A stretch of 64,000 nucleotides of DNA from a virus. The position numbers were made by a program, and so were the translations under genes. Numbering within the stretch: the first letter of the stretch is position 1; every line of letters starts with the position of its first letter. The notes beneath the pieces are model-generated. The model was given only the letters and a program-made list of their open reading frames with translations, had not been told where the DNA came from and made no database searches. The stretch is from IMG/VR virus record IMGVR_UViG_3300048851_000105, positions 1 through 64,000 of that record; one strand, written 5' to 3'. Below, one piece after another: positions 20,161-52,361 of this stretch.

Positions 20161-20177
20161 CGTTACTGTGGTAACAT
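20161..20177 (+). promoter_or_regulatory. Extended -10 (TGgTAACAT) overlapped by 16-bp operator CGTTAC-TGTG-GTAACA
   Basis: Intergenic after thyX; matches operator family. Confidence 0.65.
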
Positions 20178-36660: not shown

Positions 36661-36744
36661 GGCCCACAGACGCCAGGGCCGCGTGCTTCTTCCCCGTCGC
36701 ACGCGGCCCTGGTCCATACCCACCAGAGTCCCCAGGAGGACCGT

Positions 36745-40000: not shown

Positions 40001-40035
40001 GCATCGTGGGTAAATGGGGGCGTATCACAGGCATG
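40001..40035 (+). promoter_or_regulatory. Phage-sigma leaderless promoter copy 6 (GCAT-N16-CGTATCACAGGC-ATG)
   Basis: Consensus match. Confidence 0.75.
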
Positions 40036-40344
40036 AGCCTCCGACCCGTGTACGTCATCGACGACCAGAAGCGGGTCACTCTGGGCTCTCTGGCCGAGCC
40101 GGGCGCCTACTTCGACGTGGAGGTCGACGACGGCTCGCTCGTGCTCCAGCCGAGCCCACACGGCCGCGTGAAGGTGGACGCACGCCGGAGACTCGCTCTG
40201 GGCCGGAAGGCAGCAGCGGGTGCGATGTTCCGCGCGGACGTGTACGCTGACGGCAGGATCGTTCTGGCACCTCTGTTGCTGATCGATCCGAGCACGATGT
40301 CGCCGGAACTTCTGGCTGAGGTTAGGGCTCACATCATTTCATGA
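40033..40344 (+). CDS. Tandem AbrB/MraZ-like DNA-binding protein 1
   Basis: Two swapped-hairpin units: VIDDQKRVTL...LVLQP and KVDARRRLAL...IVLAP. Confidence 0.7.
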   Translation: MSLRPVYVIDDQKRVTLGSLAEPGAYFDVEVDDGSLVLQPSPHGRVKVDARRRLALGRKAAAGAMFRADVYADGRIVLAPLLLIDPSTMSPELLAEVRAHIIS

Positions 40345-40638: not shown

Positions 40639-40663
40639 CGATCCGACGCGTATCACAGGCATG
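40629..40663 (+). promoter_or_regulatory. Phage-sigma leaderless promoter copy 7 (GCGC-N16-CGTATCACAGGC-ATG)
   Basis: One mismatch in upstream box; ATG starts the SbcC-like gene. Confidence 0.7.
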
Positions 40664-41710
40664 CTGAACGCAATCGAGGTCAGGCACTTCCAGAGCCTCC
40701 ACCATGTCGCGCTGGAACTGGCGCCCTTCACGGTCATCGTGGGGCCCTCCTCCAGCGGCAAGAGCGCGCTCGGGCGTGCCGTGCGCATGCTCACCTCCAA
40801 CGCTCGCGGATCGTCCTTCATCACCCACGGGGAGACCGTGTGCACAGTGTCGGCTACGACCGAGCATGGCCAGGTCACCCTGCGCAAGGGCAAGGAAGAT
40901 TCCTACGTCGTCGTGCCCTCCGATCCCGAGCAGACGCAGCGCACCTTCACCAAGTTGGGTGGCGCCGTGCCGGAGGAGGTCAGCACCTTCCTGGGCATCC
41001 CGCCGAAGGACGCCATCAACTACGCCGGGCAGTTCGACCGGCCGTACCTCCTCGACGACACGGGCAATGAGGTCGCACGCACGCTGGGCGAACTGACCAA
41101 CGTCACGATGGTCTTCGAGGCCGCACGCGAGAGCCGCCGAGCAGGACTCGCGCAGTCCTCCACCCTGAAGACCCGGCGCAGTGACCTCGCGGCCGACGAG
41201 GCGCGCGTCGACGAGTACCGCGGGCTGAAGGGTCAGCGCGAGGCTCTGGACCGAGCCGAGACAGCGATCTCGGAGGCAGGCCGCATCCGTGCACGCATCG
41301 AGCGACTCACACACCTCACGACCTCCCTGGCGTCCGCAGGAGCCGCGCTGAGGGCCATCGAGGACCTGCCCGCCGTACCGGACATCCAACGCGTGCGAGA
41401 GGCGCAGAAGGTCGCACAGCGCCTCGCACGTCTCCGCGACCTCGTGGCTGGGCTGAAGCCTCTCCCGCAGGTGCCAGCCGCTCCGCCGAGCGCGGACGCA
41501 GCCCGAGCGATCGTGGCTCGCATCGATCGCTTCCAGACTCTTCGCGAGCAGATGCTCGCTACCGAGGAGATCGCCAGTGCAGCGGACGACGCCTGGCAGG
41601 CAGCCATGGAGGCTCGTGCTGACGCGGAAGCCGATCGGCTCCGAATCTTGTCTGAGGCGGGCACCTGCCCGACCTGTGGTCAGAACACCAAACACCTGGA
41701 GCACGCATGA
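40661..41710 (+). CDS. sbcC: SbcC/Rad50/gp46-like ATPase
   Basis: FTVIVGPSSSGKSAL, coiled coil, C-terminal CPTCGQ zinc hook. Confidence 0.8.
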   Translation: MLNAIEVRHFQSLHHVALELAPFTVIVGPSSSGKSALGRAVRMLTSNARGSSFITHGETVCTVSATTEHGQVTLRKGKEDSYVVVPSDPEQTQRTFTKLGGAVPEEVSTFLGIPPKDAINYAGQFDRPYLLDDTGNEVARTLGELTNVTMVFEAARESRRAGLAQSSTLKTRRSDLAADEARVDEYRGLKGQREALDRAETAISEAGRIRARIERLTHLTTSLASAGAALRAIEDLPAVPDIQRVREAQKVAQRLARLRDLVAGLKPLPQVPAAPPSADAARAIVARIDRFQTLREQMLATEEIASAADDAWQAAMEARADAEADRLRILSEAGTCPTCGQNTKHLEHA

Positions 41711-43981: not shown

Positions 43982-44214
43982 TGAGCGACCTCGACGACCT
44001 CATCATCGACGCGTTCGAGGAGCGCACGCCCTACCCCGAGCCCGTGTTCCGTACGGTCAGTGAGGCATGGGGCATTGATCGACACGGCTACATCAACGCG
44101 TACAGCGATCAGAGCACCCCGATCTTCTTCGACATCGTCCAGAGCCATAACGATGCCGTGATGTCCCGACTGGTCGAGGAGTTCGGCGTCGAGAACGAGC
44201 CGAGGACGTGGTGA
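43981..44214 (+). CDS. Hypothetical protein
   Basis: Abutting starts and stops. Confidence 0.55.
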   Translation: MSDLDDLIIDAFEERTPYPEPVFRTVSEAWGIDRHGYINAYSDQSTPIFFDIVQSHNDAVMSRLVEEFGVENEPRTW

Positions 44215-45266
44215 CCTACACCGACCAGAGCATCATGCTCATCGGCGACCTGCACTTCAGGGACACGCCCCCGCGCAACGCCACGGACACGTACGTCGAC
44301 GACCTCTTCGACCTCCTCGACTGGACGATCGACTATGCCGTCGACAACAAGATTCGGACGATCGTGTGGGCCGGGGATATCTTCGACCACAAGCAGCCGA
44401 GCCGCACTAGCCATGCGCTCGTGCTCCGTCTCGTGTCACGTGTGAAGGAGATCATCGCCGCGGGTATCGAACTCATCATCGTCGTCGGCAACCACGACAT
44501 CTCGAATGACGTGGTCGAGAGCGCGTTCACCAAGCAGCCGCTCGCTCTCCTCTACGCCGCGGGCGCCAAGGCTCTCGATGGCTGGCACGACACGCTCCCC
44601 CTCTACGGCATCCCGTGGCAGCAGCGCTGGCACGCGCCCGGCGTCCTCGACACCGTGTTCGAGCGTTACCGCACAGCGTTGGGCCGAGACGAGACCGACA
44701 CGCCTGGCGTATCGAGCATGGAGGAGTCACCCGAGCAGACACTCGTGGTCACGCACGCGAGCATCTTCCCCGATGACCTGCACCGAGACATCATGTACGA
44801 GGCCTTCAGCGCCTCTGAGGTGGCCGAGGCCATGTCCGGAGCAGGGAACCTCTACCACGGGCACATCCACGACGACCACGGCGTCTACGAGGCCGGTGGA
44901 GTGCAGTTCTGCAATCCCGGCGCCCTGAGCCGAGGCAGTGCGAGCGAGAGCAACATCACGCGCACCATCCACCTCGCCGTCTGGACACCACCGCGGACGT
45001 ACGACGCTGACGGCTGGACGGATGGCGGCTTCGACATCGTCGACATCCCGATCGCCAAGAGCGCCGAGGAGACGTTCCGACTGGAGAGCGTGCGCGAGCA
45101 CCAGAGCAACCAGAAGACGCTGGAGCGGTTCCTCGCCGGGCTGGGCTCCACCGTGTTGGACATCACCGACCGACACGCCGTCGTCCGTCACATCCGTGAG
45201 AGGCAGGACATCAGCCCTCGTGTCCGTGAGAGAGCCATCGAGATGCTGGAGGCGCAGGATGCGTAA
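44208..45266 (+). CDS. sbcD: SbcD/Mre11/gp47-like metallophosphoesterase nuclease
   Basis: IGDLH, AGDIFD, VGNHD, GHIH, NPGALSR. Confidence 0.85.
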   Translation: MVTYTDQSIMLIGDLHFRDTPPRNATDTYVDDLFDLLDWTIDYAVDNKIRTIVWAGDIFDHKQPSRTSHALVLRLVSRVKEIIAAGIELIIVVGNHDISNDVVESAFTKQPLALLYAAGAKALDGWHDTLPLYGIPWQQRWHAPGVLDTVFERYRTALGRDETDTPGVSSMEESPEQTLVVTHASIFPDDLHRDIMYEAFSASEVAEAMSGAGNLYHGHIHDDHGVYEAGGVQFCNPGALSRGSASESNITRTIHLAVWTPPRTYDADGWTDGGFDIVDIPIAKSAEETFRLESVREHQSNQKTLERFLAGLGSTVLDITDRHAVVRHIRERQDISPRVRERAIEMLEAQDA

Positions 45267-47377: not shown

Positions 47378-48633
47378 GACCGATCGAGGTGTACGCCCTG
47401 GCGATCACGATCCTCCTGGGTATCAGCATCATCATGGGCATGCGCGGCGTCATCGGCAGACGATGCAGCGCACGGACCTACTACCGAGCGTGGAGCAAGA
47501 CCCTCAGGTGTGAGAAGTTCCACAAGCACGAGGGACCCCACCGATCCGGTCGATGCGAGTGGTCCGCAGACATCAAGGTAGACGCGCGGCCGCCGTTGGC
47601 AATCGCGCCGGGTGTCCCCGCTCATCTCCTGAAGAACACCGAGCCCGCCGAGCAGCCGATCGATCCGAACAACACGATCACGGCCAGGCTGAAGCGCATC
47701 GAGACAGCGGTCAACGACACGCTCACCCACATCACGAAGGCGGCACCCAGGCTTTTGGACGACGAGCCTGGAGCGCCCAAGAGCATGTCCAAGCGCCTCT
47801 CCCCGGACGAGGTGGCCGAGTGGGCGGTGAAGCGCTGGAACAACAGGCACTCCATTGGCACTCGCGTGCACCTGAAGTCCGAGCCGCCGACGCCGAGGCG
47901 CACACAGTCCAGGGCCTACGTCGATCCCACGGGCAGTGCTCTGGTCCGCGTCTCGAACATCGCCGTGCCGGTCGACATCGACGACCTCATCGTGATCGAG
48001 AAGCGAGAGGAGCCGGAGAAGTTGTCGCAGCAGGAGGACGCCAAGCGCTGGAATGAGAAGTTCCCCATCGGCACCCCCGTGCGGATGGAGTCTGACCCGC
48101 ACACGGTCAGGCGCACGACCACGCTGGCTCACGTCGCTCTGAGCGGACGAGCAGTCGTGCACATCACGGACTACCCCCACGCCGTGATGGTTCGACGACT
48201 GTGGGTCCAGCGTGAGCAGCCGGAGCCCTACCGGCCGTCCCCGTTCGCGGCCAGAGTGCTGAAGGCCAAGCGGGAGGGCACGCCCCCGGCCTATGCGCGT
48301 TTCATGAATCGAACGCCCAATCCCTCACAGGGACAGGCAGGGACTCTGTTCATCCCACCAGGCCTCGTGACCGCGCACGCTCACAACCCAGCCACGGAGG
48401 ACCCGCGCTACTTCGACGGGACCACGCCTCCCGTCGTCAAGCCGTGGTACGACCAGAGCATCGTCCGTGCCAACCACGAGGCAATCAAGAAGATTCTGGC
48501 CGAGGGTCCCCTCCGTCCCGAGATCGACCAGTGCACCAGCACCCTGGGTAAGAACCAGAGGTGCGTCAAGCCAGCAGGCCACTTCGACCACAGGCACAGG
48601 GCAGCAGAGGGATGGGAGTGGACAGAGGTATGA
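47374..48633 (+). CDS. Mosaic protein: TM anchor, two Cys/His micro-motifs and two WN..(H/F).IGT.V repeats
   Basis: WNNRHSIGTRVHL and WNEKFPIGTPVRM repeats; CEKFHKHEGPH and CVKPAGHFDHRH. Confidence 0.7.
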   Translation: MRPIEVYALAITILLGISIIMGMRGVIGRRCSARTYYRAWSKTLRCEKFHKHEGPHRSGRCEWSADIKVDARPPLAIAPGVPAHLLKNTEPAEQPIDPNNTITARLKRIETAVNDTLTHITKAAPRLLDDEPGAPKSMSKRLSPDEVAEWAVKRWNNRHSIGTRVHLKSEPPTPRRTQSRAYVDPTGSALVRVSNIAVPVDIDDLIVIEKREEPEKLSQQEDAKRWNEKFPIGTPVRMESDPHTVRRTTTLAHVALSGRAVVHITDYPHAVMVRRLWVQREQPEPYRPSPFAARVLKAKREGTPPAYARFMNRTPNPSQGQAGTLFIPPGLVTAHAHNPATEDPRYFDGTTPPVVKPWYDQSIVRANHEAIKKILAEGPLRPEIDQCTSTLGKNQRCVKPAGHFDHRHRAAEGWEWTEV

Positions 48634-49739
48634 GCATCAGAACCCTATTAGGGCAACTCTCTCCATTTTCCCATCGTCCCCATTTACCCATGATCACCCC
48701 TGCCGACTCAGTAGCAGCGATTGAGAGGCAGTTCGGCCTACCCCAGCGGCAGCCTCACTCGATTCATGAAATGCAGCCAGCCCTACCCACCCCGGGACCT
48801 CATCCCAGGTGGTTCACCTCCCCGGGTGACTTCTCCGTCATCACTCCCCACAGCACCTATCGCCGCAAGCAGTGGACCACCCACGATGAGTCCACGTGCC
48901 AGGTAGACCACAGCATCCCTCTCCAGCCCACCCATACCGTACGGACGGGAGACTACGGGGTCTCTGTGCCAGCAGCAGAGTTCTCCCCGGGGGCAGAGGG
49001 GATCACGGAGTTCATCGAGATGCTCGCCGAGCGGGACCTCACGGTGGACATGGAGCCCCAGCAGATCGAAGAGAGACTCAGACAGGAGCAGACCCATGGC
49101 GGACCCCACACCCAAGCCGATCGAGGAGATGACCACACGGGAGGTCATCCAGATGATCCGGGACGGGAAGAAGCGACTGGAGGAGAACGGCGCAGCGAAC
49201 CGAGAGCCCTGGGAGCAGCAGCCGGGGGAGGACCTGTCGCTGTATCTGGTGAGGCTCAGGATGAACGCGGGGTACTGGGCCAGTGGGCCGTACAGGATGC
49301 AGCCGGACCGGGAGAGCATGCCCGACGAGGTGGCAGCGATCCTGAGCCCCGGGGTGATCGTGGTGGGGCCCAAGCGTCCCTGAGAGGGCACAACAGCCCC
49401 AGCCACACAGGCGCGTCCCTGAGAGGGCACAACAGCCCCGATCATGATCGAGCGCCCCTCACAGGGCAGAACCGGTCCGAATACAGGCAGCGGCAAGACA
49501 GCACCCCCGCAGAAAAAGTCGAGGCGCATGCCGTCGTCGACATGCAGAAGGTGTGGGACCTGAGCCAGCCCGGCTTCACGAGATTGACCACAGCAGCCCG
49601 GGCGGTGTGCTGGGAGCACCCTCAGACGGATCGGCTCATCGCCCCCTGGCAGGGAGAGCCTCACCTCATCCGCGAGAGCCCGGCCTACGTCCTCGCAGCG
49701 CTGGACGCGATCGAGCACGACTGGGAGAAGCACTCATGA
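48630..49739 (+). CDS. Long ORF with atypical codon usage enclosing a nested gene; extent uncertain
   Basis: Plausible coding at about 48980-49095 and 49540-49739, poor in between. Confidence 0.35.
   Translation: MSIRTLLGQLSPFSHRPHLPMITPADSVAAIERQFGLPQRQPHSIHEMQPALPTPGPHPRWFTSPGDFSVITPHSTYRRKQWTTHDESTCQVDHSIPLQPTHTVRTGDYGVSVPAAEFSPGAEGITEFIEMLAERDLTVDMEPQQIEERLRQEQTHGGPHTQADRGDDHTGGHPDDPGREEATGGERRSEPRALGAAAGGGPVAVSGEAQDERGVLGQWAVQDAAGPGEHARRGGSDPEPRGDRGGAQASLRGHNSPSHTGASLRGHNSPDHDRAPLTGQNRSEYRQRQDSTPAEKVEAHAVVDMQKVWDLSQPGFTRLTTAARAVCWEHPQTDRLIAPWQGEPHLIRESPAYVLAALDAIEHDWEKHS
49096..49383 (+). CDS. Hypothetical protein nested in the +1 frame of the 48630 ORF
   Basis: AGGAG SD, strong GC3 codon usage. 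Confidence 0.65.
   Translation: MADPTPKPIEEMTTREVIQMIRDGKKRLEENGAANREPWEQQPGEDLSLYLVRLRMNAGYWASGPYRMQPDRESMPDEVAAILSPGVIVVGPKRP
49374..49475 (+). repeat. 39-bp period tandem repeat (two identical 27-bp cores plus one degenerate copy)
   Basis: GCGTCCCTGAGAGGGCACAACAGCCCC at 49374 and 49413; degenerate copy at 49452. Confidence 0.85.
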
Positions 49740-50268
49740 GCAGGCCGGACTTCGACGAATCCGTGATCGACCCCGAGGCAGCAGGAGAACCGCACATGAT
49801 CGAGACCATCGTCCTCGTAGGCACCGGCGCTCTGTGCGCGCTCGCCGGATTCGTCATCGGATCACTCACCAGCGGGCGCAGGCGATGAGAAGCCTCAGGA
49901 GCGACTACGAGGGCTTGGGGTGGGTCAGCGTACCCGAGAGTGCGGAAATCGTCTCAGACAGGCCCACAGAGCCTCCCACGTGGGGATTCACCCACCGGAC
50001 GCCCCGCAGTCGATACGTCGAGTGCATCGTGTGCGGCAGATCGGGCGCAGGGTGGACCACAGCGACACTGACGCCTCCCGTGCCGCTTCCGCAGACCGGG
50101 TTCTACCGCTGGCAGCGGAAGTGCATGGTCGAGCACACCTGGGAGTGCGCGTGCGGAATCTTCTTCCCGAGTCAGCAGGCGCTCGCCGTCCATGTGGTCA
50201 AGAACTGGCAGTACCACAAGCCCGGACACGGCCGGATGGATCGAGTCGGCAACAAGAAGCATGGGTAA
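49736..50268 (+). other. Two small genes (49736-49888 membrane peptide; 49885-50268 with CxxC and C2H2-like motif)
   Basis: ATGA overlaps; CACG...LAVHVVKNW. Confidence 0.5.
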
Positions 50269-50297
50269 ATGGGGAGTTCCCTAACAGGGCAGATGTG

Positions 50298-50313
50298 TGT
50301 TACAGTAGACACG
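50298..50313 (+). promoter_or_regulatory. Extended -10 TGtTACAGT with operator TGTTAC-AGTA-GACACG
   Basis: Same core as 51416 and 53816. Confidence 0.7.
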
Positions 50314-50610
50314 TACCAACGGCCAGCCGGTCGAGCGGAGAGTCGTCCATGGACAGGGCGGTGAGATCACCAAAATCCGGAGACCGTTGGGAACGTCCAG
50401 AGGAAGGGCCCTAGGCCGCTGAGCGTCCCGTGACGGGCTCTTCCTCGCCCCCTTACCCAGAGGCCTCAGGGCTGGAGAACTCGCGGACTTGATTGGCCGC
50501 TAATGACGTCTCCGTCCTGAGGCCTCTGCTTTGCCCTCTGAGGGAACTCTCCATTGTGGGGACTTCCCTCAGAGGGCACCCTTATGTGGGTATCCCTGCT
50601 AGGGTAAGCG
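50314..50610 (+). ncRNA. Highly paired RNA or long structured leader, about 300 nt
   Basis: Stems of 12 bp (50400-50411/50435-50446), 13 bp (50458-50470/50516-50528) and 15 bp (50532-50546/50564-50578). Confidence 0.6.
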
Positions 50611-50611
50611 C

Positions 50612-50926
50612 ATGCAACGAGAGATCAGCCGCATCGACGGCCGTAGACGAATCAAGGTTCCCGACCTGGCGCCGGGCACGCGCGTACGCACAGCAGAGGC
50701 CAATGGCCGCATGGCCGTCGTGCCTGACGAGGCCGGGCCCCTCCGTGCCGACTCCCAGAGCCGCATCACCATCCCCATCGGCAGCAGTGTGGGCATCCCC
50801 GGAGATCACCTCACTGTCGAGCAGCGCCCCAACGGGTTCGTCCTTCAGCGCGCGATCGTGGTCACGTTCCAGGACATCGGCCCGGAACTCTGGGCTACCC
50901 TCACAGGGCAGAGCGAGCAGGAGTGA
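50612..50926 (+). CDS. Tandem AbrB/MraZ-like DNA-binding protein 2
   Basis: RIDGRRRIKVP...MAVVP and RADSQSRITIP...FVLQR. Confidence 0.7.
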   Translation: MQREISRIDGRRRIKVPDLAPGTRVRTAEANGRMAVVPDEAGPLRADSQSRITIPIGSSVGIPGDHLTVEQRPNGFVLQRAIVVTFQDIGPELWATLTGQSEQE

Positions 50927-50929
50927 CCC

Positions 50930-51105
50930 CCTACCCTGTTAGGGTAAACACGTGCACCTCAGGCAGGCGCGCAGGATCGTGACCGGCCTGTCTGAGAACA
51001 GATGCTCACTGCGACAGATAGTGGGGCGGCGTAAGCCCTGAGGTGCACCTCTGTCGTCGGCGCCAATGGTCGATTCTCGAATTCGGCGAGCGCCACGACA
51101 GGCCT
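50930..51105 (-). ncRNA. Structured RNA of about 175 nt downstream of the tRNA-like RNA
   Basis: 12-bp stem 50952-50963/51037-51048 enclosing a branched domain; 7+5 bp stem 51051-51063/51090-51101; terminal hairpin 50932-50946; strand inferred from the promoter. Confidence 0.5.
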
Positions 51106-51118
51106 GGGAGGGGGAGCA

Positions 51119-51222
51119 TGCCGGGCGGTGGGATTTGAACCCACGGAGCGCTACGCGAGCGCTCACCGTATCCCGGCGCGATCGTCCGGGGGCTCACCTT
51201 AGGCCGCTCAGACACGCCCGGC
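51119..51222 (-). tRNA. Class II (Ser/Leu-type) tRNA-like RNA with non-canonical anticodon arm
   Basis: Acceptor GCCGGGCG/CGCCCGGC, D loop GAGCGGCCTAA, 7-bp variable stem, T arm GTGGG-TTCAAAT-CCCAC; about 29-nt anticodon region; no CCA. Confidence 0.7.
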
Positions 51223-51346
51223 ATGCGACCCCGAGTGTAGCAGGGGGGGGGGAGGGTTCCCCGCGCAGGGTGGGCCTGTCAGACCCCTCATCGCTGGTTC
51301 ACCGTCCGGACTCGGGGCCGGAATCCCTGCTAGGACCTCCTCTCTA

Positions 51347-51378
51347 CGTTACTATTGTAACACGTCACTGGTGTAACA
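51347..51378 (-). promoter_or_regulatory. Leftward extended -10 promoter (TGtTACAAT) under two tandem operators
   Basis: CGTTAC-TATT-GTAACA and CGTCAC-TGGT-GTAACA; the only leftward promoter seen. Confidence 0.7.
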
Positions 51379-51395
51379 CCTAATCCTGAGCAGAG

Positions 51396-51431
51396 TAGAG
51401 GTTTCCTCTGTAACCTGTTACAGTAGACACG
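51396..51431 (+). promoter_or_regulatory. Rightward early-type promoter/operator cassette
   Basis: TAGAGG-N17-TACAGT; near-identical to 53796-53831. Confidence 0.75.
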
Positions 51432-51451
51432 TACCGAGGAAAGGACACCCC

Positions 51452-52327: not shown

Positions 52328-52361
52328 AGAAATCCTCCAGTCACGTGTTACACTAGACACG
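52325..52361 (+). promoter_or_regulatory. Early-type promoter/operator cassette (TGtTACACT)
   Basis: Operator TGTTAC-ACTA-GACACG at 52346-52361. Confidence 0.7.

Follow-up and report, generated by a model that had tools for sequence, protein, structure and literature searches.

What is a 1.2-kb island of mostly non-coding DNA for in the genome of a virus? We address this question for positions 50270-51450 of IMG/VR record IMGVR_UViG_3300048851_000105, a 125,778-bp virus genome with terminal repeats that is rated complete and of which bases 1-64000 are the window analyzed here. The source is a large, uncultured actinobacterial phage, and the GC content of its genome is about 65%. When GC at third codon positions (GC3) was plotted by frame, we found a clear coding signal at 49834-50268, at 50612-50926, and from 51452 onward, and none at 50270-50611 or 50930-51450, which agrees with a preliminary description of this DNA as a mostly non-coding island with one small gene. 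The label 'RNA module' given to the island in that description is a fair one, since it holds non-coding RNA-type features with their own predicted promoters, including a non-decoding RNA derived from a tRNA. We tentatively propose, with a probability of roughly 0.4, that the island is a transcription-control junction that heads a block of small orphan genes and consists of several short units, and that its tRNA-derived RNA is most likely a non-decoding mimic. The transcription starts and ends, the pairings of proteins with sites, and the RNA activities given below are those that we infer from the sequence.

The tRNA-like RNA, of about 111 nt, is specified by the minus strand at 51116-51226 and folds with a z score of -4.9 (here and below, fold z scores are relative to shuffled sequences). 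A perfect 12-bp helix forms the outside of the fold and is followed by U8-G9. Next come a weak D stem, whose loop (GAGCGGCCUAA) is of the Ser type, and, in the position of the anticodon arm, a 5-bp stem that carries 9 nt (ACGAUCGCG) in its loop. Seven bases are then left unpaired before a variable stem of 7 bp, and the series ends with a T arm that is canonical (GUGGG-UUCAAAU-CCCAC). The T-arm, D-loop (A14, G18-G19), and U8 features of canonical tRNAs are all present, the T and D loops fix the strand of the RNA, and all stems but the D stem are perfectly paired (12, 5, 7, and 5 bp). The outer helix corresponds to an 8-bp acceptor stem with 4 further pairs, so that pairing continues for 4-5 bp beyond the discriminator, and no CCA is encoded. 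The 9-nt loop has neither U33 nor purine 37 in register unless 4 nt are skipped, and the anticodon arm has 25 nt rather than 17. Plain ARAGORN found 0 tRNA genes, whether run on the window or on the whole genome; with the intron option at default stringency, it called a 'tRNA-Ala(cgc) with a 4-nt intron', drawn with an 8-bp acceptor. Rfam returned no tRNA hit up to an E-value of 10 and no family at gathering scores in the whole window, and a partial match to tRNA-Sec reached 21.4 bits against a threshold of 47.

The D and T arms are near-identical to those of actinobacterial tRNA-Ser, which together with the fold score upholds the earlier description of this RNA as tRNA-like. In matches to actinobacterial-type tRNA-Ser genes at prophage ends (for example, loci L052, 155-245, and L054, 683-768), 21 of 23 positions agree in the D arm and 23 of 24 in the T arm. 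In a class II alignment, the RNA was far closer to actinobacterial-type tRNA-Ser than to the tRNA-Ser of Microbacterium phage Magritte, the closest named phage (PolA 48% identical), or of two relatives, G002 and G004; 15 uncultured relatives have PolA proteins that are 45-55% identical. It shares U8-G9, the long variable arm, and the order of the arms with actinobacterial tRNA-Ser, but its acceptor differs at 4 pairs (all of them paired) and runs past the discriminator, and its variable stem has 7 bp. The closeness of the D and T arms thus points to a captured host-type tRNA-Ser and not to a leftover of the tRNA array of this lineage, which in G002 and G004 lies at other map positions. The phage has no canonical tRNA; its relatives carry 19-28, and ARAGORN finds 26 in a 49-kb stretch of Magritte. 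One call in G002, a class II 'tRNA-Pyl(cta)' at 70393-70476, is of the amber-suppressor type.

Among known phage RNAs, the closest precedent for the element is RNA1 of phage T5 (AY543070.1, 30501-30644), which is annotated as 'tRNA-like stable RNA with unknown functions' and whose fold is that of a class II tRNA of the Leu type in which the anticodon arm is enlarged. The likeness is one of architecture only: both are phage-encoded class II bodies with a canonical T arm and an enlarged, non-decoding anticodon arm. T5 RNA1 is Leu-type, 144 nt long, and part of a same-strand tRNA cluster, whereas the element here is Ser-type, is the sole tRNA-like gene, runs against the flow, has its own predicted promoters, carries 8 extra nucleotides in the anticodon arm, and is sealed by a 12-bp helix. 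By this analogy the RNA most likely belongs with the T5 RNA1-type tRNA-like stable RNAs, and within this known but uncharacterized kind of phage RNA it represents a new variant, of the Ser type. YrlA-type Y RNAs resemble it in having a tRNA-like module within a non-coding RNA, and Magritte has a gene for a Ro-like protein by its tRNA array; the present element, in contrast, has no Ro gene in its genome and no Rfam match, and it ends at the acceptor helix and not on the anticodon side. A Y RNA was therefore rejected (PF05731, TROVE/Ro, is absent from the genome, with positive controls), as were a tmRNA (none found by ARAGORN) and an attP site at a tRNA gene (the integrase families PF00589 and PF00239 are absent from the genome, and the positive controls worked). 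Antisense pairing of the 9-nt loop with the mRNA of the 104-aa gene of the island (10 nt at 50850) was also set aside because the 9-mer complement of the loop, CGCGATCGT, occurs 12 times in the genome.

Two predicted promoters face leftward ahead of this RNA. P_L1 (51346-51379, minus strand), identified by its repeat family and a motif scan, has an extended -10 element, TGT-TACAAT (reverse complement of 51354-51362), inside two 16-bp direct repeats (51346-51361 and 51362-51377) and an upstream element, GTTACACCAGTGACGTGT; the leftward promoter under two operators that had been described is thus borne out. P_L2, which is absent from the preliminary description, is a TGnTAnAnT site with the extended -10 element TGC-TACACT (51234-51242, minus strand); the motif ends 7 nt before the outer helix of the tRNA-like RNA, and the predicted start at ~51226 is the first base of that helix. 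The core of P_L1, GTTAC-N4-GTAAC, is present before at least ten genes. Because it is palindromic, orientation matters, and the leftward reading is backed by about 30 nt of P_L1 that recur at 87.96 kb, in the promoter of a TetR gene that itself runs leftward. The description of P_L1 as the only leftward promoter holds for the window in a whole-genome view, but the genome also has the leftward TetR-gene promoter, and P_L2 adds a second leftward extended -10 element. Likewise, the genome is not wholly one-directional, as had been stated, given the leftward block at 87.3-88.5 kb with the TetR gene and a beta-clamp-like gene. Between P_L1 and the tRNA-like RNA, the C-rich run of the described leader can be read directly from the sequence (CCCUCCCCCCCCCC, 51243-51256, minus strand), but the 110-nt leader folds no better than shuffles (z +0.2). 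Minus-strand open reading frames (ORFs) under P_L1 were considered and rejected, as no start codon follows GGAGG and GC3 is ambiguous.

The rightward promoter noted in the preliminary description, P_R1 (50298-50317, plus strand), is supported by an exactly repeated 19-mer. Exact copies of this 19-mer, GTTACAGTAGACACGTACC, which holds the extended -10 element TGT-TACAGT, stand at 50299, 51417, and 53817, and close variants of it at 52347, 57569, and 61333; every one is on the plus strand, and 0 copies are expected by chance. In P_R1, TGT-TACAGT is followed by AGACACGTACC, with a predicted start at ~50313. The pattern TGnTAnAnT has only 8 sites on both strands of the genome (252 kb read), five rightward and three leftward, and 7 of these 8 are placed as promoters would be (the five rightward sites, P_L1, and the TetR-gene promoter); the eighth is P_L2. 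Every rightward copy except the one at 50299 has a ribosome-binding site (RBS) and an ATG within 20-35 nt on its 3' side. From this placement, the other rightward copies appear to be ordinary promoters of genes; the copy at 50299 is the exception, as no gene follows it for about 300 nt. One of the ordinary copies closes the island on the right: P_R2, the next rightward early-type promoter (51393-51435, plus strand, 19-mer repeat), has its motif at 51416-51435, with an RBS and then an ATG (51452) downstream. A promoter scan for sigma-70-type -35/-10 pairs at 16-18 nt spacing found 0 in 48-54 kb. Extended -10 promoters are common in Actinobacteria, and the empty scan fits promoters of this type; in the predicted promoters, TGn stands directly before TAnnnT in a gene-proximal position.

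These promoters lie in a field of short palindromes. Of the 17 genomic copies of CCCT-N3-AGGG, 12 fall within 48322-50944 (2.6 kb), for which our own binomial arithmetic, taking this 2.6-kb interval as given, yields an estimate of ~5e-17. The clustered copies occupy four consecutive intergenic gaps and three genes, and those in the island overlap or flank each promoter. One covers the -35 region of P_R1 (50279), and each arm of a hairpin termed H3 below (50532-50578) contains one. The others lie over the -10 element before the 104-aa gene (50594), inside that gene (50898), and directly after it (50934). A further operator-like copy, GGAATCCCTGCTAGG (51320-51335), matches 10 of the 11 palindrome positions (at 51325), lies just downstream of the P_L1 start, and is 93% identical to 50589-50603. 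Judged by its sequence, the array has the look of a set of operators to which one dimeric DNA-binding protein would bind.

The palindromes are in part embedded in longer repeats. A composite motif, TGGGTAAATGGGG - AGTT - CCCTAACAGGGCA (50262-50291, plus strand), recognized from its repeats, is operator-like and lies just upstream of P_R1. The 13-mer TGGGTAAATGGGG is found exactly at 40007-40019 (plus), 50262-50274 (plus), and 48678-48690 (minus), with variants at 81036, 91625, and 13843; it precedes the regions of both tandem-repeat (AbrB-like) genes, with an inverted copy at 48.68 kb. The 22-24-nt motif TGGGGAsTT-CCCT-nAn-AGGG-CA is also found at 50532-50555 (minus), 50557-50578 (plus), and 48643-48672 (minus). 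Together, TGGGTAAATGGGG and the palindrome form a composite of about 35 nt that stands in opposite orientations at 48.65 and 50.27 kb and flanks the genes at 48691-50268. Within the same region, a 26-nt repeat, CGTCCCTGAGAGGGCACAACAGCCCC, has three copies at 39-bp spacing at 49375-49480, each with the palindrome inside and the third diverged; they lie in the intergenic gap behind a gene whose end is at 49383, and copy 1 includes the stop codon of this gene.

The one gene of the island (50612-50926, plus strand, GC3 0.80) encodes a protein of 104 aa in which the repeat D-x-x-x-R-[IV]-x-[IVL] occurs twice and for which a tandem SpoVT/AbrB (MraZ-like) fold is predicted. Read from the sequence, the palindrome CCCTGCTAGGG (50594-50611, plus strand; duplicated at 50934) lies over an extended -10 element, TGC-TAGGGT (50597-50605), 6 nt before the ATG, and is a candidate leaderless promoter with an operator. 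This placement fits a leaderless mRNA, or else the AGGG may be a weak RBS on a longer transcript. A weak paralog with the same repeats is encoded at 40033-40344, and a full HMMER search of 1.84 billion representatives gave a single distant relative, the 90-aa protein P0002 (E-value 1e-5), again with the same repeats. The ESM Atlas model of the 104-aa protein has structural neighbors with MazE_antitoxin and MraZ domains (TM 0.68-0.71), but the protein has no Pfam or PDB-sequence match, and its AF2 model (confidence score pLDDT 36 from a single sequence and 71 from 3 sequences) had no PDB match by Foldseek or VIA. The gene described earlier as AbrB-like has a clear coding signal by GC3, and the name 'AbrB/MraZ-like' is a reasonable lead from structural models, not a finding. 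Like MraZ and SpoVT/AbrB proteins, it has ~100 aa and two tandem repeats, each with D-x-x-x-R and then a beta-hairpin, and repeated DNA motifs ahead of its gene. In contrast to MraZ, it has no adjoining division genes or toxin, and its DNA repeats are palindromic and not the direct TGGGN repeats of the MraZ type. A toxin partner is absent, as only non-coding DNA and a 29-aa ORF follow downstream and the preceding gene belongs to no family.

Between P_R1 and this gene, 50310-50615 folds far better than shuffled sequences (z -6.4). We read 50313-50580 (plus strand) as a non-coding structured RNA, either a leader or a separate small RNA (sRNA) of 215-265 nt, on the basis of its fold z score and the missing GC3 signal. 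The pairing is unevenly distributed: the first 86 nt are unstructured (z -0.5), hairpin H1 (50400-50447) folds modestly (z -2.1), and H2 (50458-50528), with a perfect 13-bp base, and H3 (50532-50578), with 22 pairs and two interruptions, each reach z -7.6. The roughly 300 nt of paired RNA described earlier are therefore well supported as a whole and for H2 and H3, but not for the first 86 nt and only modestly for H1. Similarly, the heptamers CCTCAGG and CCTGAGG do form stems, at 50464/50516 and 50957/51037, but with 46 copies across the genome their enrichment is modest. A leader peptide (a 21-aa ORF from 50349) was rejected because its GC3, by hand count, is ~50%.

Perfect stems of at least 12 bp with loops of at most 80 nt number 15 in the genome, and 3 of them lie inside the island, in a stretch of 600 bp. 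Perfect hairpins of 13-16 bp without a U-tract also stand 6-15 nt after gene ends at 36673-36712, 70331-70427, and 115715-115744, and the hairpin at 115715 has CAGAGGCC in common with H2. From their position, such hairpins are probably the usual terminators of this phage. Since similar hairpins without U-tracts follow other genes, we read H2 and H3 chiefly as terminators or attenuators; the only call of a terminator scan in 48-54 kb lies inside H2. By analogy, P_R1 and H1-H3 are proposed to yield a self-contained RNA of ~215-265 nt or a leader with gated read-through, and H3 may be as much a DNA site as an RNA hairpin.

Beyond the 104-aa gene, a hairpin at 50932-50946 had been described as a terminator for both directions. 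It has a 6-bp stem, a 3-nt loop, no T run on either strand, and no terminator call, so this role is not upheld. The DNA at 50934-50951 (plus strand) instead carries the second copy of the palindrome with an extended -10 element, TGT-TAGGGT (50937-50945), 6 nt before a GTG at 50952; over 23 nt, its identity to 50594-50616 is 83%, and the start codon has the same offset in both. Judged by the sequence, the better reading is a second copy of the promoter/operator element before the 104-aa gene. The predicted start of this copy is the first base of a perfect 12-bp helix at 50952, which closes a branched 97-nt domain (50952-51048, an inverted pair, z -2.2 to -2.4) that begins 26 nt after the stop codon of the 104-aa gene. 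A second hairpin (7+5 bp, z -2.1 to -2.7) follows at 51050-51101. The 175-nt structure described here is thus present as folds, but these are only marginal (z -2.1 to -2.7) and can form on either strand. The hairpins at 50952-51101 start 26 nt past the stop codon, the usual site of hairpins in this genome, and are candidates for stopping both converging transcripts; 50952-51048 may alternatively be a rightward sRNA. A 29-aa GTG ORF (50952-51041, GC3 ~79% by hand count) starts at the predicted start of the duplicated promoter; one strand of the 12-bp helix holds the first 12 nt of this ORF, and the other holds its stop codon.

The surroundings of the island are consistent with an accessory region. 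In a tblastn map, modules at 0-45 kb and 93-125 kb are common to the relatives G002 and G004 (GC 55%), almost nothing is common at 45-93 kb, and nothing at 45-57 kb, so that the island sits within a variable block. The small orphan genes around it have no Pfam or PHROG families. At the edge of the conserved part, 40661-41710 encodes an ATPase with a Walker A motif and a long coiled-coil-like region, and 44208-45266 encodes a calcineurin-like phosphoesterase (Metallophos, E-value 5e-10); from their sequences, the two look like an SbcC/SbcD-type pair closing a conserved replication/recombination module. The leftward block mentioned above (locus L076, genome positions 87300-88550) encodes a TetR-family regulator of 121 aa (87531-87896, minus strand; TetR_N, E-value 5e-14), a DNA polymerase III beta-clamp-like protein of 190 aa, and a small ORF. 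GTTAC-N4-GTAAC palindromes, which usually enclose a TAnnnT -10 element, lie at 20162, 51348, 57569, 61333, 75146, 77673, 81105, 82055, and 105122, 10-40 nt upstream of many start codons. These palindromes are candidates for the operators of a single phage repressor, possibly the TetR-like protein. We also observed that a 17-nt promoter core, TGTTACAGTAGACACGT, is found exactly in five otherwise unrelated viral contigs (loci L033-L037; IMG/VR, 15-43 kb, GC ~60%), in all of which it is followed by CTCCCCTCC and a small hairpin; the two may form a shared host-specific promoter or sRNA signal.

Putting these elements together, we propose that P_R1 would fire rightward to give a very stable non-coding RNA, which H2 and H3 would end or attenuate at 215-265 nt, insulating what lies downstream. 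An extended -10 promoter of its own would serve the gene of the predicted tandem AbrB/MraZ-fold DNA-binding protein, whose mRNA may be leaderless. As a palindrome lies over that promoter and palindromes crowd the region, repressor control there is likely, perhaps by the 104-aa protein itself. From the other side, P_L1, built like the TetR-gene promoter, and P_L2 would drive the tRNA-Ser-derived RNA. Placed between these converging units, the hairpins at 50952-51101 would halt transcripts that arrive from either side. The tRNA mimic would be a stable RNA that uses its tRNA shape for processing, for stability, or for docking a tRNA-binding protein. The layout recalls the pR/pL pair of coliphage 186, the face-to-face promoter switch of a temperate phage, in that promoters converge, operators are present, and a small repressor-type gene lies between. 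It differs from that switch in that the promoters are 740-1030 bp apart with hairpins between them, there is no integrase or other sign of lysogeny, and the leftward product is an RNA.

Several observations weigh against this proposal. Homologous loci, whose conservation could have backed it, were not found: a DNA-level search of 50,697 phage records gave no homologous locus, nor did a search of viral and metagenome contigs with the 104-aa and flanking proteins. A word search of 5.8 billion proteins with the 104-aa protein returned only the protein itself, and a covariance model of the tRNA-like RNA matched only itself in G000-G004. Pattern scans of 185,579 species genomes and of metagenome contigs for tRNA-Ser-type D and T loops around an enlarged middle revealed no bacterial or phage analog, matching only intron-bearing tRNA-Ser of Thermoproteota archaea (loci L056-L103), and the viral pattern scan picked up nothing but normal tRNA-Ser genes located at the ends of prophages. 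Within the reach of exact-motif scans, the tRNA-like element thus appears to be a singleton. The acceptor stem of those archaeal tRNAs, GCCGGGG, is one base apart from GCCGGGC here, which is probably a coincidence. For the regulator, PF04014 and PF02381 gave no match up to an E-value of 10 with the 104-aa protein, its paralog, or P0002. All long stems of the island are near-perfect palindromes that fold about equally well on both strands and could act as DNA, so that folding does not set the strand of the rightward RNA, and H3 is an inverted pair of the recurring 22-nt DNA motif. A U-tract is absent from every hairpin of the island, and the terminator role assigned to them is an analogy within this genome. 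The palindromic core of P_L1 also reads as a weaker rightward -10 element, and the D stem of the tRNA-like RNA is weakened by one mismatch and one wobble, which could mean decay.

Decay is the core of one alternative, in which the tRNA-like element no longer works and is left over from a captured host tRNA-Ser or from the tRNA array found in relatives, the hairpins are plain terminators, and no RNA acts in trans. We consider this doubtful, if a possibility to be taken seriously. Loss of tRNAs has occurred in this phage, which has none of the 19-28 found in relatives, and it would fit the degraded D stem, an anticodon loop that resembles a 4-nt insertion, and hairpins without U-tracts that recur after other genes. 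However, the four other helices are perfect, and 4-5 extra perfect acceptor pairs are not created by decay; a rare extended -10 motif stands exactly ahead of the RNA; and the element resembles host-type tRNA-Ser and not that of the phage lineage, whose arrays lie at other map positions. Because the elbow and the long variable arm, the very features by which proteins that handle tRNAs recognize them, are kept and the helices are intact, a functional non-decoding mimic is favored over a fossil by about 2 to 1. That the RNA could still decode, as an irregular tRNA of a Sec-like (8/5) or allo-tRNA-like kind that is charged by seryl-tRNA synthetase (SerRS) and reads codons with its enlarged anticodon loop, strikes us as very improbable. 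In its favor, SerRS does not read the anticodon, and ARAGORN with the intron option does call the element. The RNA resembles bacterial tRNA-Sec (RF01852) in its 8-bp acceptor, its T stem of 5 bp, and the length of its variable arm, but its match of 21.4 bits falls well short of 47 and its 9-nt loop has no UCA anticodon, nor U33 or purine 37 in register. Irregular tRNAs are known in phages and near toxin-antitoxin genes (PMC5389517), and allo-tRNAs, which have 8/4 or 9/3 stacks and some of which are inactive in translation, are among those near such genes (Mukai et al., 2016; PMC5389517). The long acceptor stem, the long variable arm, and Ser-type identity features recall allo-tRNAs, as does a neighbor with a predicted MazE/AbrB-type fold. 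The acceptor/T stack here, however, has 13 bp (8/5) and not 12 bp, the acceptor is paired through the discriminator without a CCA, and there is no readable anticodon and no toxin partner.

A different kind of explanation would place the function in the DNA. The region at 48.3-51.4 kb could be a nucleoprotein site, such as an origin, a partition or packaging site, or a looping complex, with the RNA folds as by-products of symmetry. The crowding of 12 of 17 palindromes into 2.6 kb, the three 26-nt repeats at regular spacing, the 22-35-nt composite in both orientations, the inverted pair in H3, and the failure of folding to favor a strand all speak for this. Nevertheless, we regard it as unlikely, as the T and D loops make the tRNA-like element strand-specific, the promoters are well supported, and the island has no AT-rich unwinding stretch, no turn in GC skew, and no adjacent initiator, ParB, or terminase gene. 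The preliminary description had favored a dedicated early RNA system, perhaps one that counters tRNA-targeting or RNA-sensing defenses or hijacks translation; in such a system, the tRNA mimic could act as a decoy or a substitute. A tRNA body without a readable anticodon, made from its own predicted promoters by a phage without tRNAs and set in a block of orphan accessory genes, invites this idea, and phage tRNAs are known to counter anticodon nucleases (PMC10264068). We nonetheless think it improbable: no recognizable defense or counter-defense gene lies near the island, the anticodon loop that known anticodon nucleases recognize is the very part that has been replaced, the 12 genomic occurrences of CGCGATCGT allow no specific target to be inferred, and the 'early' timing comes from the promoter type only. 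A more specific version of the mimic, to which we likewise assign a small chance, is that a host tRNA-Ser was captured and rebuilt as a non-decoding mimic, expressed against the flow of the genome from promoters wired like that of the TetR gene, whose target in trans would be a host factor that binds tRNA (a tRNA-directed defense nuclease, SerRS, or a processing enzyme), with the MraZ-like protein and the palindromes setting its timing.

Returning to the transcription-control junction with a tRNA mimic that we favor, non-decoding phage RNAs with a tRNA body have been on record since T5 RNA1, and none has an assigned function. The present case is a clean one for bench work, as it combines a single copy, the absence of real tRNAs, an origin from a host-type tRNA-Ser, predicted promoters and ends, and a candidate regulator with its operators within 1.2 kb. 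If the RNA is not a mimic, the island would still be a compact map of the promoter, operator, and U-tract-less terminator signals of uncultured large actinobacterial phages. If it is a functional mimic, it would help to show what such RNAs are for, and if the captured-and-rebuilt reading is true, it would represent the Ser-type branch of an uncharacterized class of phage tRNA look-alikes.

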